DNA of 64,000 nucleotides from Escherichia phage UoN_LG358_1. The DNA is taken from the sequence record OK570374; one strand, written 5' to 3'. Of this stretch, positions 7,526-52,926 are shown piece by piece. A program made the position numbers and the translations under genes. The notes beneath the pieces were generated by a model, which worked only from the letters and a program-made list of their open reading frames with translations, was not told the DNA's origin and made no database searches. Numbering within the stretch: the stretch's first letter is position 1; every line of letters starts with the position of its first letter.

Positions 7526-8221
7526 TTATCCACGACCTTTTGGAAGTGAAAGAGGGTCAACTTCATCACCGACCGGAGCTTCTTCTAATCCAAGCGCATA
7601 TCGTTGAGCATATTTCAGCATCAGAATATCTTTAGCACAATCATGAATACTATCATGAGCGATGAACCCGTCGAGTACACCATTACGCAATGGAGTTGTT
7701 GTTAAATTTCTAGTCATCAAAAGAGCTTCTATTGCTGTACGAATGTCTCGTTGATTCCAGAATTTACACGGTTCCAAATTAAATGTGTCAATATCTTTAT
7801 CTTCAATTCCTTTCCGGAGTTCACCTTCACGTAGGATATCAACAAGAATAGGAAAGTCAAATGACTGTCCGCGGCACCATCCGAATGAGTTCCATGCATC
7901 TACTCCGTTATCTTTCAGGAATTTAAGAAGTTTATAAAGTCCTTCGACGTGGTCAATGTCATCATCAGACGGTGCAAGGTTAGCTCTAGCTTCAGCTGAC
8001 TGCTTTTTCCACCAAGCTAAAGTACTTGCACCGAATAACCGAAATGGACGCTGAGACCGGAGGTCAAACTTTAGTTTCATTCCCCTGGAAACTAGTTCGT
8101 CGAACGTTTCGATAACTTCCGGATTAGGGTCAAAAACTACCACCGCACAGTCAATAACTGCTGATCGAGAAACGTTACCGAATGTCTCCCAATCAATAAT
8201 AAAATCTTTTACGCCCGGCAT
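7526..8221 (-). CDS. dexA: exonuclease A (DnaQ-like 3'-5' exonuclease)
   Basis: 231 aa; FIIDWETFG acidic exonuclease motif; position and size match T4 dexA. Confidence 0.7.
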   Translation of the reverse strand: MPGVKDFIIDWETFGNVSRSAVIDCAVVVFDPNPEVIETFDELVSRGMKLKFDLRSQRPFRLFGASTLAWWKKQSAEARANLAPSDDDIDHVEGLYKLLKFLKDNGVDAWNSFGWCRGQSFDFPILVDILREGELRKGIEDKDIDTFNLEPCKFWNQRDIRTAIEALLMTRNLTTTPLRNGVLDGFIAHDSIHDCAKDILMLKYAQRYALGLEEAPVGDEVDPLSLPKGRG

Positions 8222-8442
8222 AGATATTCCTTAAATTCATTAATCTGTTTAGATATTTTATCATTAATTGATATAAGCGGTACTTGTCCTTGGAACCAAG
8301 CGATACTCATAGCTTCGTCGCGAATCTCGTTTAGTTGAAGCAATAACGTAGATTGATGACCGCGCCACCAAGCATCTTCGGGTTTGTTAATTTCAATAGC
8401 ATTAATCAACTTATCAAAATCATCAATATCAAGAGTAAACAT
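8209..8442 (-). CDS. hypothetical protein
   Basis: 77-aa ORF in track. Confidence 0.4.
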   Translation of the reverse strand: MFTLDIDDFDKLINAIEINKPEDAWWRGHQSTLLLQLNEIRDEAMSIAWFQGQVPLISINDKISKQINEFKEYLCRA

Positions 8443-8451
8443 ATTTGTTCC

Positions 8452-9777
8452 TTATACAAAGAAAACATCATGGCGGCCACGAGTTGCACCCACATAAAGA
8501 AGTTCTAGCTTAAACTTATTATCGCTGCTTACGTGAATACACGGAGTATAAATGAAACTACTATCTACAGAAATACCCTGAGCTTTATGGAACGTTGAAC
8601 AAGGTAAAGCTTTAACCTTATGAAATTTTCGTTTAGCATCCCAGAATTCTGACCAAGGAGCTTTACCGCCTTTATTCCAGTTTTTATAAGTATCTGCCGT
8701 CTTTGCCAAGAAAAACTGAAATTTGTTCATTTCTTGTTCGTCAGATATTACATTAATTTTCTCACGAGCATATTCTTCATCGTCATAAGTTTCTACATCT
8801 AAAACCCAGTGACGAATTAGATGTTCACCAGATACTCCCTTTGCTCCCAAGAATGAAGATGTGTAATCTGCACTTAGAATACGAACATATTGACCATTAG
8901 TAAATAATGTTTCATGGAATTTTTTTCCCTCAAATACAAGTTCCCTCATTAAAGGTTCTTGCATAACAATAACTTCTCCTACTACGAACGCTTCTTCCGT
9001 TTGATATAAACGTCTACGAATGATAGAGTTTAATTTATCAACCGACTTATTTGTGAATGCGAGCATTCGGTTTTCAAACAAATCTTCCGGTGATTTGACG
9101 ATACTAAAATATTGCATCATAAAATCTTTAAGTGCCGTTGTACTTGTAAATCCATGCACACCATGACCATCAACAGTTTTTTCGTAAATCCATGAACCGT
9201 TTCTTATATCAGTAGCAACATCAATAATCGGAGCGTTACTGCGCATTACTTCAGTAAGATTTAATTGTTTAAAATCTTTATGAATAAAGAAAGGAGATAT
9301 ATGAGCTTCTGTTTCTCCAGGGTCAACCGGACGAATTTGAGCGACATCTCCAATAGCGACTATAGTACACCATTTAGGAATTGAAGCCATTAGTATTTTA
9401 AATAATTTGCGGTCCCACATTGAAGCTTCGTCACATATTAGCACTCGGCATGATGCTAAATCTGGCACTTCTTTTTGTTCAAACAACATACTTTCTTCAT
9501 ATGTTGTGGGGTTAATTTTTAAAATTTTATGAATAGTATTAGCTTCCATGCCGGACAATTTGGTTAATACTTTTTTGGCTGCATGTGTAGGAGCCGTCAA
9601 AATAATACCAGTTTCGCCAGTAGAAACTAAATGCTCCATGATAAATTTTGTTAACGTAGTTTTACCAGTACCCGCTGGACCGTTGATAGTAACATGGTTT
9701 TTCTTTTCTTTTATAGCTCTAATAGTTTCATCAAATGCTAGTTTCTGGCCAGAAGTCAGCTGCTCAAATGTAATCAT
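8452..9777 (-). CDS. dda: Dda DNA helicase (SF1B)
   Basis: 441 aa; VTINGPAGTGKTTLTKFI...GIILTAPTHAAKKVL closely matches T4 Dda Walker A region. Confidence 0.9.
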   Translation of the reverse strand: MITFEQLTSGQKLAFDETIRAIKEKKNHVTINGPAGTGKTTLTKFIMEHLVSTGETGIILTAPTHAAKKVLTKLSGMEANTIHKILKINPTTYEESMLFEQKEVPDLASCRVLICDEASMWDRKLFKILMASIPKWCTIVAIGDVAQIRPVDPGETEAHISPFFIHKDFKQLNLTEVMRSNAPIIDVATDIRNGSWIYEKTVDGHGVHGFTSTTALKDFMMQYFSIVKSPEDLFENRMLAFTNKSVDKLNSIIRRRLYQTEEAFVVGEVIVMQEPLMRELVFEGKKFHETLFTNGQYVRILSADYTSSFLGAKGVSGEHLIRHWVLDVETYDDEEYAREKINVISDEQEMNKFQFFLAKTADTYKNWNKGGKAPWSEFWDAKRKFHKVKALPCSTFHKAQGISVDSSFIYTPCIHVSSDNKFKLELLYVGATRGRHDVFFV

Positions 9778-10073
9778 ACCACTGATACCCTTTTAACACT
9801 TAATGTGTTCATAATTTGTCTGTTCATTCTACTTTCAATTTCAGAAAGCTTTTTAAACTTCATTTCAACTTTATCGAACCAGAAACGACGTTTCTTAATT
9901 GTAGTTTCTACTTTACCGACATTCAATATATGAGTAAGATAAGTTTTTAGCTGCTCATAATGCTTCACAGCATCATCAAATTTTTCATAGATTGTAGCCT
10001 TTCCAGATTCGAAGTACGGGAGTTCAAACCCGTCTTTATCTTTGTAGACTAACATGTATCCATAGTGCATCAC
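9774..10073 (-). CDS. hypothetical protein (dda.1 position)
   Basis: 99-aa ORF in track. Confidence 0.45.
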   Translation of the reverse strand: MMHYGYMLVYKDKDGFELPYFESGKATIYEKFDDAVKHYEQLKTYLTHILNVGKVETTIKKRRFWFDKVEMKFKKLSEIESRMNRQIMNTLSVKRVSVV

Positions 10074-48698: not shown

Positions 48699-49676
48699 TT
48701 ATTTCAGCATTGTTACTTCTGAGATTTCACGCCAATTTTTCTCGTCTGTTGCTACGAAATCCGCCAAATACAAGGCAGTACGTAATGATACATTACGAAG
48801 ACGGTTTACGTTGTTTTTCATAAATTCGAGAACATCAACAACCTGTGAATTACGTAATCCGCGATTTTGTAACATCCGGGTATTCATAATAACTTCTTCA
48901 ACGCGGACCATTATTTCTTCATTTGAATGAACACCTAAATCTAAATAAACTGAACGTGATACCAAAGCAGCAAGATGCGGTGCTAATTTGCTTCCACGTT
49001 CTAATTCTTTATCAATATCAACGTTTGTGATAAAAACTACTGTTCCCTCATATTCAAATTCATTTGGGATGTTTTTTTCTTCCAAGTAAGAAGAAGCAGT
49101 ACTCCAACATACCTTACGTTTATCACCCGAATCCAAAGCAGCTTTAAGAAGATTTAGAATATCCATATCAGAAAATACGTCCACATCATCAATAAGCAGA
49201 ACTGAATTAGCTTCACGAGATTCCCAAAGACGGCAGTAAAGACCAATCCCGGAAATTTTACCATTGACTGATTTATATTCAATTCTACCATCATTGTGAG
49301 CATTTTCCAATGCTTTATCTAAGGTGTAAGTTTTACCAATACCCGCAGCGCCCGAGATGATAAGTGAACGAATGTTACCATTTATAATACCATTCGTCAT
49401 AAATCCCATAACGTTAAAGCGCTTATTAATGCGAGCTTTCATATCATCTACGCTTTCGATAAGTTCAATCTTTTTAGTAGTTCCGCTGTAGCTGATATCT
49501 GATTTGTAAACCCAAACACCTTTTTTCTTACCATTAATCATTACGAATACTTTACCATCACCTTGGGCAGCATCTTCGGGTTTCAAAGTTTCCGGGAACC
49601 ATTCCCCTACTAATTCGAACGTCCCGGAAATTTCTTTTCCGAAGTTAATACCTTTATTGATAGTGATGGTTGTCAT
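48699..49676 (-). CDS. P-loop NTPase (AAA-like ATPase) of unknown function
   Basis: Walker A GAAGIGKT, Walker B VLLIDDVD, sensor-like FITN; start at ATG 49676 downstream of an early promoter. Confidence 0.5.
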   Translation of the reverse strand: MTTITINKGINFGKEISGTFELVGEWFPETLKPEDAAQGDGKVFVMINGKKKGVWVYKSDISYSGTTKKIELIESVDDMKARINKRFNVMGFMTNGIINGNIRSLIISGAAGIGKTYTLDKALENAHNDGRIEYKSVNGKISGIGLYCRLWESREANSVLLIDDVDVFSDMDILNLLKAALDSGDKRKVCWSTASSYLEEKNIPNEFEYEGTVVFITNVDIDKELERGSKLAPHLAALVSRSVYLDLGVHSNEEIMVRVEEVIMNTRMLQNRGLRNSQVVDVLEFMKNNVNRLRNVSLRTALYLADFVATDEKNWREISEVTMLK

Positions 49677-49725
49677 TTTATTCTCCAAGTTAGTTTTTGT
49701 TTTACCATTTATTTGGTATGAAGTA

Positions 49726-49755
49726 ATAGTATCATCATTTCATACCGTTGTAAAC
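49726..49755 (-). promoter_or_regulatory. T4-type early promoter with -10 inside hairpin loop
   Basis: GTTTAC-18-TACTAT on the minus strand; inverted repeat GGTATGAA/TTCATACC (49715..49746) brackets the -10. Confidence 0.4.
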
Positions 49756-49763
49756 ATTATTTT

Positions 49764-49982
49764 TTAAATTAATGCTAAAATTTCGTTGACGTAGTAAGGA
49801 CGAACTTTGGAGTTCAAGAAAAATTCATCAACGAAGTCAATCAATTCATCAGTAGTACCAGAAATGTTTGCTAACTTAGAGAAAACTTCTCCGACCATCA
49901 AAGCTTCAAATTTAACGTTGTATTGACGAGCTACTTCTTCGGCTTTTGTGACGTTATTTACTACGATTTGCAAAGTTTTCAT
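49764..49982 (-). CDS. hypothetical small protein
   Basis: Start at ATG 49982 (SD GGAG); MKTLQIVVNNVTKAEE... Confidence 0.4.
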   Translation of the reverse strand: MKTLQIVVNNVTKAEEVARQYNVKFEALMVGEVFSKLANISGTTDELIDFVDEFFLNSKVRPYYVNEILALI

Positions 49983-50278: not shown

Positions 50279-50393
50279 TTTATTCTCCAATGTATCAGTT
50301 TGTTTGGTATGAGGTAATAGTATCAAACTTTAAAGCATCTGTACACACTTTTTGAAAATTTTCTTCAAAAACAACAAAACCTCCCGAAGGAGG

Positions 50394-50648
50394 TTATTTG
50401 GAGTATTTTTCTAGCTGGCGCTCAGCGAACCGTTTAGGTAGCATAAACAACCATTTTAGGATATGCCAGAGACCCGTTAAGATAAAAACAGGTAACCATA
50501 ATAGTAATACAAACAGGTAAGAAGAAGTGTCCTCAATCGTCCCTCGTTTAACGAGGGCATTTGTTATAAACCAGCCGCATGTTAGATAAACTAACGTAAC
50601 AATGATAGGCATAATCCACCAAAGCTGAGCTAAAAGTAAAGTAACCAT
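50394..50648 (-). CDS. small two-helix membrane protein
   Basis: 84 aa; two hydrophobic stretches (WWIMPIIVTLVYLTCGWFI / LFVLLLWLPVFILTGLW); immediately downstream of the nucleotidyltransferase. Confidence 0.45.
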   Translation of the reverse strand: MVTLLLAQLWWIMPIIVTLVYLTCGWFITNALVKRGTIEDTSSYLFVLLLWLPVFILTGLWHILKWLFMLPKRFAERQLEKYSK

Positions 50649-50651
50649 AAT

Positions 50652-51662
50652 TCACCGGTAGTAATGGTTGTGATTTTCAAGATAAACCTCTTCCAAGAAC
50701 TTGTCCCAGAATGTCATATCAATTTTGTTAGGCATTCCATTTTTAGACGCAGTCATTGCCAGTGCTTCAACTTCATCTACGATGTCTTCAAGACTAGCTT
50801 GGACATCTTTGAATGGGATTAATCCTTGCTTAATTTCTAAGATGAATGGTGCAGTACAAAGAGGATATTTTAAGTCGCCTGTTTTGTAAATTTCCTTTAA
50901 CTGATATCCAGCACGGTACGCATGACTCAGAGCTTTCCAATCAATGCCTTCGTTAGCTTCTGCCTTTCGTGCTCGTTCGCCATATTCACTATCAAGTTTG
51001 TTTAAAGACTGTTTGAGCTCAGTAACAGAGAGTGTAGTCTGGTATTTGCGTCCTAATACAGTATAGAACGTCTGTGGACCAGTTTTCTCATGGTTATGGA
51101 ATACCCATTCACAGAATTCATTCTCTGGAAGACGATGTTTGATATCTTCAACCTTAGTACGACGTGGACGTGTCGGAATACATTCCTGATGGTCAACCCA
51201 CTGCTCAGGAACTTGATTAACAATTTCAAGAACCTGGCGAAGAGCAGCCAGGCGCGAACCTTTTACACCATATTTGGCAGCTTGTTTCCGGACATATCCA
51301 AGATAAGATTTCATATTAGTGGTGTAAAACCGCCAACGGTTGTCTTGAATAAATTTCCACACTTCGGGCAAATCAGATTTAACAATCATATTGCTAGGAG
51401 TATGAAGCATATCAAGAGCAACAGTTTCTCCTTGCTTAGCGAGTTCCAACCAATATTTGAGAGAATAGAGTTCATGGTCCACGTCGTCTTTGGTGTTTTT
51501 AGTTTCAGTGTTATTGGTGTTAAAATTCGTGTGGTTCATAGCCCGCCCAAGTAGAATGTCTCGGGCGTTTGGAACAAAAATTTCTTTAAAATCGACATCA
51601 CTTTCAGGCGTAGATGTACCGTATAAATGACTTCCAAAATAGCTTTTTACGACTGTTTTCAT
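50652..51662 (-). CDS. Pol-beta-superfamily nucleotidyltransferase-like protein
   Basis: N-terminal GSHLYGTSTPESDVDF (GS...SDxD) plus downstream acidic DVDH; start at ATG 51662 abutting the upstream stop. Confidence 0.5.
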   Translation of the reverse strand: MKTVVKSYFGSHLYGTSTPESDVDFKEIFVPNARDILLGRAMNHTNFNTNNTETKNTKDDVDHELYSLKYWLELAKQGETVALDMLHTPSNMIVKSDLPEVWKFIQDNRWRFYTTNMKSYLGYVRKQAAKYGVKGSRLAALRQVLEIVNQVPEQWVDHQECIPTRPRRTKVEDIKHRLPENEFCEWVFHNHEKTGPQTFYTVLGRKYQTTLSVTELKQSLNKLDSEYGERARKAEANEGIDWKALSHAYRAGYQLKEIYKTGDLKYPLCTAPFILEIKQGLIPFKDVQASLEDIVDEVEALAMTASKNGMPNKIDMTFWDKFLEEVYLENHNHYYR

Positions 51663-51663
51663 A

Positions 51664-52215
51664 TTAGCCCCAAAATAATCCGTATGCATCCAGCGCATTT
51701 GTATCTTTAAAATTAATCATTTCAATTTTACGAGTATTTTCGTTTTCAACGACCACAGCAGAACAGCTATCGTTGATGTAAACTACTTTCCAATATCCAG
51801 AGCTAGAAGGTTTAGAAAGCATATCGCCAACAGCCACAGGTCTGTTAATGAATTTTTTCTTATTTACAACTTTACATAATGTGTATTTTTTAGGGTCAAA
51901 AACAAGTTCTTCACCTTTATATTCGACAACAGAAAAATGTTCAACTTTGAAAAAATCTGAGCCATTATAATAAAGAATTTCGTCTTTAAAGTCCAATTGA
52001 ATGATGGCGTCCGGGTCTCCAACTACTGTGCCAAATATATAATTCTGGCGGTTAACGTCTGAAAACTCTCCAAAACAAGTTTTACCTACTATACGTATTT
52101 CGTATTTTTTGGTTCCAGAGGGGTCAATCAAAATATTAAGAATATCGCCAGTTTCAATTGGTACTAGTTCCGGTTCAATTACTGTCTTGGGTTTTTTAAA
52201 TGAAATTTTGCTCAT
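51664..52215 (-). CDS. hypothetical protein
   Basis: First ATG at 52215; track ORF starts at TTG. Confidence 0.4.
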   Translation of the reverse strand: MSKISFKKPKTVIEPELVPIETGDILNILIDPSGTKKYEIRIVGKTCFGEFSDVNRQNYIFGTVVGDPDAIIQLDFKDEILYYNGSDFFKVEHFSVVEYKGEELVFDPKKYTLCKVVNKKKFINRPVAVGDMLSKPSSSGYWKVVYINDSCSAVVVENENTRKIEMINFKDTNALDAYGLFWG

Positions 52216-52222
52216 GTTTTTC

Positions 52223-52678
52223 TCACTTTTTAACAAATTCAATTAATGGACAAATTTTTTCTTTTCGTGCTTTAATATATTGGATAACAATGCTTTTACT
52301 TTCCGTCTTTTCACCAGCTTCTATCTTTTTAATACGATTTTTGAGCCGGGTCGCATAAATTTTACTCTGCACTTTATAGCATAAAAGATTTATACCAACA
52401 AGCACTCCAAAAATAGCGCTTATAACAATAATTCCAATAATTGTTCCTAGAATTACACTTCCTACTGAATTTGAAATACCAATGGAAGATAACAGATATA
52501 TTGCTAAATCAACTCCAATTAAACTACATGCAAATAATATAATAAAAATTACTGAAGCAGACATAATTAGTACAAGTACAATTTTCCAAAAATACACACA
52601 TAAACTATTCGGCCGAGTAAAAGAACTAAAAAAGAAGTCATAAATTCGACAATGCCAAGAACTAGTATTAATAATCAT
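52223..52678 (-). CDS. hypothetical multi-pass membrane protein
   Basis: 151-aa ORF with several hydrophobic segments. Confidence 0.4.
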   Translation of the reverse strand: MIINTSSWHCRIYDFFFSSFTRPNSLCVYFWKIVLVLIMSASVIFIILFACSLIGVDLAIYLLSSIGISNSVGSVILGTIIGIIVISAIFGVLVGINLLCYKVQSKIYATRLKNRIKKIEAGEKTESKSIVIQYIKARKEKICPLIEFVKK

Positions 52679-52926
52679 TGTTCATTTCCTTTCATAGAAG
52701 GCAGTACAATATTCAAATAGTCACGAAGTTTTTCAGCTTCGGTTTTTAACAGAAAAATTTCTACGTCTTCGTCTTCATAATCTCTATGAATTATGCTAAC
52801 AATCTCATAGTTTTGTCCTTGATACCCATGTTCAATAACATCTAAGTTGAGAACACTTATTTCGCCAAAAGATGCATCAATTACATTAGCTTCGCGGCCA
52901 ACGCCTTTAAAATTCATTACTGTCAT
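52675..52926 (-). CDS. hypothetical protein
   Basis: 83-aa ORF in track. Confidence 0.4.
   Translation of the reverse strand: MTVMNFKGVGREANVIDASFGEISVLNLDVIEHGYQGQNYEIVSIIHRDYEDEDVEIFLLKTEAEKLRDYLNIVLPSMKGNEQ

Follow-up and report, generated by a model that had tools for sequence, protein, structure and literature searches.

A T4 NrdC.11 orthologue of the RlaP nucleotidyltransferase family and its proposed role in phage tRNA repair

The stretch of 64,000 nucleotides analysed here from Escherichia phage UoN_LG358_1 (sequence record OK570374; the window) carries on its minus strand, at 50652..51662, a gene for a 336-residue protein that begins MKTVVKSYFGSHLYGTSTPESDVDF. We conclude that this protein is a genuine Pol-beta-fold nucleotidyltransferase (NTase) of the RlaP family (PF10127), within a long, 'NrdC.11-type' subfamily, and that it is the orthologue of bacteriophage T4 NrdC.11; both its identity and its fold are near certain. 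By analogy with characterised relatives, we estimate a probability of about 60% that the enzyme would add one or two untemplated nucleotides to trimmed tRNA 3' ends ahead of sealing by Pnkp and Rnl. The gene is already known: it is annotated in RefSeq as STP4a_093 of Salmonella phage STP4-a (Gelderlandvirus, Tevenvirinae; an S16-like relative of T4), and it has been assigned to RlaP in the literature. The 2.4-kb stretch around the gene is 100% identical to STP4-a, and we use the STP4-a gene names throughout.

RlaP membership and Pol-beta fold of the NrdC.11 orthologue

The protein matched Pfam PF10127 (RlaP, 'RNA repair pathway DNA polymerase beta family') with 42.1 bits against a gathering cut-off of 23 (E 1.1e-10), over protein residues 7-135, and it matched phrog_388, 'nucleotidyltransferase', from end to end (E 1.5e-128). 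The family comprises 3,122 clusters at 50% identity, with 879 at E <= 1e-30, nearly all of 300-350 residues. Conservation was assessed in two alignments (A1 and A2) of 59 and 71 homologues, the 59-sequence set spanning 35-79% identity. All 59 homologues keep G10, S21, D22 and D24, and S11, D60, D62 and D84 are nearly invariant among them; residues that are invariant or nearly so in both alignments also include N56 and, in the C-terminal part, Y131, R230, D241-W-K243, H247 and R250. Because the GS and SDxD residues are invariant or nearly so in the 59 homologues, the motif lies far beyond chance. The first-pass annotation of this DNA had proposed a Pol-beta NTase from its GS...SDxD signature, a proposal that the PF10127 and phrog_388 matches and the conserved residues bear out.

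The catalytic positions can be matched one by one with those of canonical, shorter RlaPs. The codons of G10-S11 (51630..51635, minus strand, as for all window coordinates that follow) specify the hG[GS] motif that marks a Pol-beta NTase and align with the GS of canonical RlaPs, and those of D22-V23-D24 (51591..51599) specify the DxD metal-binding carboxylates, both invariant in the two alignments, which align with D43xD45. The third catalytic carboxylate is probably D62 (codon 51477..51479), which lies in a predicted strand (residues 61-67) and is aligned by hhalign with the invariant D82 of canonical RlaPs. D84 (codon 51411..51413), in a conserved ALDMLH motif, corresponds to their invariant E104. 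A confident AlphaFold model of the NTase (predicted local distance difference test score, pLDDT, 87.6; predicted template modelling score, pTM, 0.72) begins with an alpha/beta NTase core (residues ~1-135). A beta-rich insert follows (~154-208), and the C-terminal part is a bundle of helices, the last of them long. The protein therefore has both the motif set of the Pol-beta superfamily (hG[GS], [DE]x[DE] and a third carboxylate) and its alpha/beta core fold.

We also considered other NTase families. The first-pass annotation had suggested that profile searches might place the protein among CCA-adding, MNT, CD-NTase or OAS-like families, and CCA-adding, MntA and CD-NTase assignments found no support. 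The NTase had no Pfam match at E <= 0.1 to the CCA-adding head domain (PF01743, PolyA_pol) and no Pfam or NCBIfam match to CD-NTase/OAS profiles; the MntA profile (NCBIfam NF047752, cut-off 60 bits) scored 13 bits (E 0.073), and NCBIfam otherwise returned sub-threshold noise only. A PADLOC scan of the NTase, both flanking open reading frames (ORFs), a nearby 151-residue membrane protein and the NrdC.10 orthologue gave nothing at E <= 0.1. Sequence searches against the PDB, made with the single protein and with the 59-sequence profile, gave no significant match in a set that evidently lacks the PfRlaP crystal structure. As for the C-terminal bundle, inspection of the conserved R230, H247 and R250 showed that the canonical HEPN Rx4-6H motif is absent.

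The Pol-beta NTase fold, the intact active site and the phage origin would also suit a signalling-nucleotide enzyme of the CD-NTase/OAS type, or a mimic acting against host CBASS-, Thoeris- or Hailong-type immunity by making or capping oligonucleotide messengers. In keeping with such an idea, the protein resembles Hailong HalB (PDB 9dbh) in structure. Identity to HalB is 13% over 149 aligned residues, and HalB itself is a 217-residue bacterial defence protein whose oligo-dA is primed on its own tyrosine and which is paired with a large channel protein, HalA. We consider a signalling role very improbable.

Orthology with T4 nrdC.11 and distribution in T4-like phages

The STP4-a protein and T4 NrdC.11 (NP_049709.1; 'nucleotidyltransferase') are 79% identical over 336 of 336 residues, without gaps, and their genes have the same length of 1,011 nt and the same orientation. 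T4 nrdC.11 sits between nrdC.10 and mobD and upstream of rI.-1, rI and tk; STP4-a shares this order, with nrdC.10 and nrdC.11 followed by homologues of rI.-1, rI and tk. Full-length identity and synteny thus place the protein in the T4 NrdC.11 orthologous group, contrary to the first-pass view that T4 has no counterpart at this position. The two loci differ in detail. In T4 the mobD homing endonuclease gene lies directly upstream, there is no 84-residue membrane ORF downstream, and the gap between nrdC.10 and nrdC.11 is only 114 nt.

The RefSeq start of STP4a_093, at 51698, is 36 nt farther upstream than the one used here and makes the gene overlap the preceding one. The conserved start is at 51662, and 51698 is too far upstream, since M1 is invariant in the 59-sequence alignment and the T4 orthologue agrees.

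Using tblastn, we found the NTase in 1,516 phage records, mainly of T4-like phages of Escherichia, Klebsiella, Shigella, Aeromonas, Acinetobacter and Vibrio, with a few others. The gene is therefore not accessory in the sense of being rare. The GC content of the NTase gene (0.39-0.41) is slightly above that of its flanks (0.29-0.35), which gives no sign of a foreign island. Orthologues of nrdC.11 in T4-like phages were matched to the nucleotidyltransferase group COG3541 as early as 2006 (PMC1524935). The interval from nrdC.11 to mobD.3 can be lost, in that a genome-reduced T4 stays viable (PMC9825161). The first-pass annotation had named clear homology to a T4 housekeeping gene as grounds for abandoning its reading; a clear T4 homologue does exist, but nrdC.11 is dispensable and is not a housekeeping gene. 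Among database records, OL964745.1 (Escherichia phage T4, 159,752 bp) has nrdC.11 reduced to its last 39 codons (49712-49828), with the gene largely deleted, which fits the reported dispensability of this interval (PMC9825161).

Naming of these genes in databases is uneven. The name nrdC.11 is given outright in two phage records, and RefSeq lists STP4a_093 as 'nucleotidyltransferase'. In GenBank and UniRef, NrdC.11 orthologues are very often mislabelled 'thioredoxin', and one is called 'HNH homing endonuclease'. The wrong 'thioredoxin' label apparently leaked from the gene symbol nrdC.x.

RNA-repair genes in the phage and beside cellular relatives

In the STP4-a genome, Pfam confirmed genes for Rnl1, Rnl2 and a Pnkp of the T4 type, in which a kinase is joined to an HAD phosphatase. 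To these we added the neighbourhoods of cellular relatives, for which 80 bacterial and archaeal loci with full-length NrdC.11-type proteins (30-50% identity) were collected and the neighbouring genes clustered. No single partner dominates. The recurrent same-strand neighbours are RtcB (8 loci), Ro60/TROVE (4), the Pnkp ligase domain (3) and T4-type Pnkp (2), and an RNA-repair gene (RtcB, Pnkp-ligase, Ro60/TROVE or T4-type Pnkp/Rnl1) lies within 5 kb in 14 of the 80. The association with RNA ligase and repair genes after which RlaP is named is thus found for cellular relatives of the NrdC.11 type, and this context supports a role in RNA-end repair for the NrdC.11 subfamily and not just for the RlaP family overall.

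Two loci illustrate the association. On a 4-kb contig from a Bathyarchaeota metagenome-assembled genome (MAG) bin (L008:62-3803), genes for an NrdC.11-type NTase, an NT5C-like nucleotidase, a T4-type Pnkp, a 143-residue ORF and an Rnl1-family ligase follow one another on the same strand with tight junctions; the contig may be viral DNA that was binned into the MAG. In Rheinheimera phage Barba31A (L088:2250-4900), an 85-kb phage that is not T4-like, a gene for a CCA-adding tRNA nucleotidyltransferase stands two genes upstream of that for the NrdC.11-type NTase, on the same strand and with one small ORF between them.

A second pattern concerns the RlaP family itself. Directly downstream of the long type, 21 of the 80 cellular loci encode a short RlaP of the canonical kind (255-270 residues, full-length PF10127 match, E 1e-51 to 1e-73), at about 8000-9800 in most; these tandem loci include L010, L013, L016, L024, L025, L029, L035, L048, L054, L060, L071-L073, L079, L083 and L084. 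In a profile comparison, the long and short members of the tandems had only the N-terminal ~90 residues in common. The arrangement suggests that the two enzymes form a system in cells and that T4-like phages have retained just the long one.

Comparison with characterised RlaPs

According to papers that quote Burroughs and Aravind, nrdC.11 was assigned to the RlaP RNA-repair family in 2016. Two members from Pseudomonas, PfRlaP and PaRlaP, which are encoded between rtcB and rtcA, have been characterised in a preprint of December 2025 (PMC12776372). Both append one or two nucleoside monophosphates (NMPs) to an RNA 3'-OH, using any nucleoside triphosphate (NTP) and deoxynucleoside triphosphates too, while DNA and proteins are not modified (PMC12776372). 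They prefer Mn2+ and, once a tRNA is cleaved, favour its 5' half; aminoacylation of a tRNA short of one anticodon-loop nucleotide was partly restored by these RlaPs (PMC12776372). The authors propose that RlaP is an antidote to 'smart' ribotoxins such as RloC, which cut and then excise a nucleotide, and T4 NrdC.11 appears in their list as an RlaP 'of unknown function', placed in cluster 5 of a sequence similarity network (SSN) (PMC12776372).

The NrdC.11 type resembles these bacterial enzymes in several respects. Its Pfam score puts it in the family to which they belong, and the GS, the DxD and the third Asp can be aligned between them. Both seem to share a two-domain plan, in which a helical domain that has a terminal helix comes after the NTase, and both types associate with RNA ligases and repair genes. 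In contrast, the NrdC.11 type is ~70 residues longer, carries a beta-rich insert, and in cells often stands beside a canonical RlaP instead of replacing one. When it was compared by hhalign with 16 canonical short RlaPs, only residues 2-91 aligned (probability 93%, E 3.3e-7). The predicted structures of short phage RlaP-like NTases superpose on it over >300 columns, with template modelling (TM) scores of 0.5-0.7.

Other phages encode PF10127 NTases as well. The RlaPs of jumbo phages (for example phiKZ PHIKZ237, 'YcgL-like') are predicted to restore nucleotides before ligation, and their occurrence follows that of RNA ligases (PMC7824862). These RlaPs are of the canonical short subfamily, which we found in 78 phage records, all from jumbo phages and none T4-like, whereas the long NrdC.11 type occurs in ~1,500 mostly T4-like records and is dominant in Straboviridae.

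Could the NTase instead nucleotidylylate a protein or small molecule, as in MntA-like AMPylation of a host HEPN-type RNase toxin or in the manner of an aminoglycoside NTase, and so provide anti-defence by covalent modification? We judge this unlikely. The MntA score falls far under its cut-off whereas that of PF10127 was passed, the genes recurring beside cellular relatives are those of RNA ligases and end-healing enzymes and not HEPN toxins or resistance contexts, and the two RlaPs assayed so far left proteins and DNA unmodified (PMC12776372).

Proposed role in tRNA repair

We propose that NrdC.11 would act on RNA ends in the following way. D22, D24 and D62 would form the two-metal site, with the G10-S11 loop holding the NTP, and broken RNA would be extended at its 3'-OH, without a template, by one or a few NMPs. 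The substrate would probably be a tRNA 5' half that has been cut by a host anticodon nuclease and then trimmed, as by RloC when it excises the wobble nucleotide. The phage Pnkp could then heal the ends and Rnl1 or Rnl2 seal them, rebuilding a full-length and partly functional tRNA, so that translation might continue during infection. RloC's removal of the wobble nucleotide was first proposed as a means of defeating repair by T4 Pnkp and Rnl1 (PMC2610378). The computed basis for this role consists of orthology, fold, intact catalytic residues, Pfam score, co-occurrence with Pnkp, Rnl1 and Rnl2, and the RNA-repair neighbours of cellular relatives; together with the published activity of two bacterial RlaPs, they lead us to infer that the NrdC.11 subfamily acts in an RlaP-like way, on the substrate given above and against nucleases of the RloC type. 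Carrying the published RlaP activity over to NrdC.11 is reasonable but unproven. The first-pass annotation had offered three functions, an anti-defence enzyme, a tRNA/RNA-repair enzyme or an exclusion module. The second is favoured by PF10127, by the cellular neighbours and by the presence of Pnkp, Rnl1 and Rnl2 in the phage, and the third is unsupported.

Several points weigh against tRNA repair by nucleotide addition. In the phage, nrdC.11 is unlinked to pnkp or rnl, and 66 of the 80 cellular loci have no RNA-repair neighbour inside 5 kb. On laboratory hosts, nrdC.11 is dispensable for T4 (PMC9825161). Both characterised RlaPs fall into SSN cluster 1a, apart from the cluster 5 of NrdC.11. 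PF10127 is matched over its N-terminal half only (profile positions 24-143 of 249), and the C-terminal ~240 residues, the substrate-binding part with the beta-rich insert, are not detectably homologous to canonical RlaPs by sequence. The tandem pairing in cells suggests that the long and short types are non-redundant, with possibly different roles. Finally, untemplated addition would yield mostly wrong nucleotides, as the authors of the preprint themselves point out (PMC12776372).

The divergent C-terminal part and the tandem pairs suggest that the T4 enzyme should not be assumed to be PfRlaP-like. One way in which it could differ is in having an RNA-end activity unlike that of the characterised RlaPs, such as longer tailing that marks host or phage RNAs for decay or repair of tRNA 3' ends at the acceptor stem instead of the anticodon loop. 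The C-terminal domain and beta insert of its own and the long/short tandem pairs in cells would fit such an activity, as would the CCA-adding enzyme nearby in the Rheinheimera phage and the terminal uridylyltransferases (TUTases) among weak Foldseek matches. On the other hand, the overall architecture is common to short RlaPs and the same classes of RNA-repair neighbours recur; we regard such an activity as improbable.

A narrower form of the repair proposal, to which we give tentative and limited credence, is that the long NrdC.11 types constitute a functionally separate RlaP branch. Such enzymes would have their own substrate-binding domain, would work alongside canonical RlaPs in cells and alone in T4-like phages, and would specifically restore the nucleotide removed by RloC-type wobble-excising nucleases. 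If true, this would account for the way T4-like phages deal with a defence that has long been believed to overcome Pnkp/Rnl1 repair. The idea that RlaP counters RloC has already been published; new would be the distinct specificity or mechanism of the subfamily and a demonstrated phage phenotype.

Flanking ORFs do not form a conserved module with nrdC.11

All genes of the region, including the NTase gene and its two immediate neighbours, are carried on the minus strand. The upstream neighbour, STP4a_094 (51664..52215; phrog_12852), encodes 183 residues from its annotated ATG at 52215; the coordinate 52242 is a mechanical TTG start of the same ORF. Its TAA stop codon lies one base ahead of the NTase ATG, as the first-pass annotation had noted in describing a 184-residue ORF translationally coupled to the NTase. 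At the other end, the NTase stop codon TGA is followed by ATT and then by the ATG of the downstream neighbour. Close junctions of this kind are common across the whole co-directional gene block, so the coupling is not peculiar to these three genes. The junction described in the first-pass annotation is thus real, but the ORF length is corrected to 183 residues.

STP4a_094 had no Pfam, NCBIfam or PADLOC match, and a homologue search of a 5.8-billion-protein database retrieved only two clusters. The protein is predicted to be all-beta, and its AlphaFold2 model is unreliable (pLDDT 47). Only 26 phage records carry it, those of Gelderlandvirus and Moonvirus-like phages plus a few more; in STP4-a it occupies the slot held in T4 by the mobD homing endonuclease. 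The nrdC.11 of VR25 (Gaprivervirus) has a homologue of the 151-residue membrane protein (32% identity, E 7e-26) as its immediate upstream neighbour; STP4a_094 is therefore a lineage-restricted insertion between the gene for that membrane protein and nrdC.11. Homology of STP4a_094 to MobD.1 was considered and rejected.

The downstream neighbour, STP4a_092 (50394..50648; phrog_6166), is an 84-residue protein for which hydropathy analysis confirmed the two hydrophobic segments expected of the two-helix membrane protein named in the first-pass annotation. It is the last gene ahead of a terminator-like hairpin. Whereas the NTase occurs in 1,516 phage records, STP4a_092 occurs in 257; it often adjoins nrdC.11, but only in a subset of genera.

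These observations bear on whether the NTase and the 84-residue membrane protein, with or without the 183-residue ORF, could work as a module, either as a Hailong-like pair, with a membrane effector gated by what the NTase makes, or as a superinfection-exclusion or abortive cassette. Tight junctions are normal in the block, and the 13% identity to HalB is confined to the common NTase core. A large transmembrane partner like HalA was not found here: the sole membrane neighbour has 84 residues, accompanies 257 of the 1,516 NTase-bearing records, and is absent from T4 and from the 80 cellular loci. T4 lacks both the 84-residue and the 183-residue ORF, and both flanks of nrdC.11 carry different genes in T4, VR25, Roth20 and Aeh1. 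No homologue of either flank, of NrdC.10 or of any other window neighbour was found near the 80 cellular relatives, nor was there a PADLOC match. Because the flanks vary between lineages (26 and 257 records against 1,516), there is no three-gene module of the sort implied by the first-pass annotation, and a paired function of the NTase and the membrane protein is very unlikely. We regard the 183-residue and 84-residue ORFs as no more than neighbours transcribed together with the NTase gene in a densely packed block of early genes, and we do not count the 183-residue protein as part of the NTase function.

Other features of the region

The NrdC.10 orthologue, a 329-residue P-loop protein (48699..49688), is 76% identical to T4 NrdC.10. 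Its matches to Pfam AAA and STAND-NTPase profiles are weak and below threshold. Three small ORFs lie between nrdC.11 and nrdC.10 in STP4-a, and nrdC.10 is missing at the VR25 locus. A conserved functional pair of nrdC.10 and nrdC.11 is unsupported, given the VR25 locus and the lack of NrdC.10 near the cellular relatives.

Upstream of STP4a_094, the 151-residue membrane protein (52223..52678) has two transmembrane segments and belongs to phrog_944, in the 'moron/host takeover' category. It is adjoined by an 83-residue protein (52675..52926) with a match to Pfam T4_y05I_C, a putative transcription-factor C-terminal domain (E 1.8e-19).

Immediately after the STP4a_092 stop codon, a hairpin resembling an intrinsic terminator, AACCTCCTTCGGGAGGTT followed by TTGTTGTTTT, spans 50378..50395. 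It is a consensus match only, with four such sites in the region against 2.4 expected. A scan of the region for sigma-70-type promoters was uninformative (19 sites against 19.2 expected).

Elsewhere in the STP4-a record, STP4a_130 (64117..64575) encodes a 152-residue protein, adjoins a tail-fibre chaperone gene and is annotated 'RNA ligase'. We take this protein to be too short for an RNA ligase, and the label is presumably a propagated misannotation.

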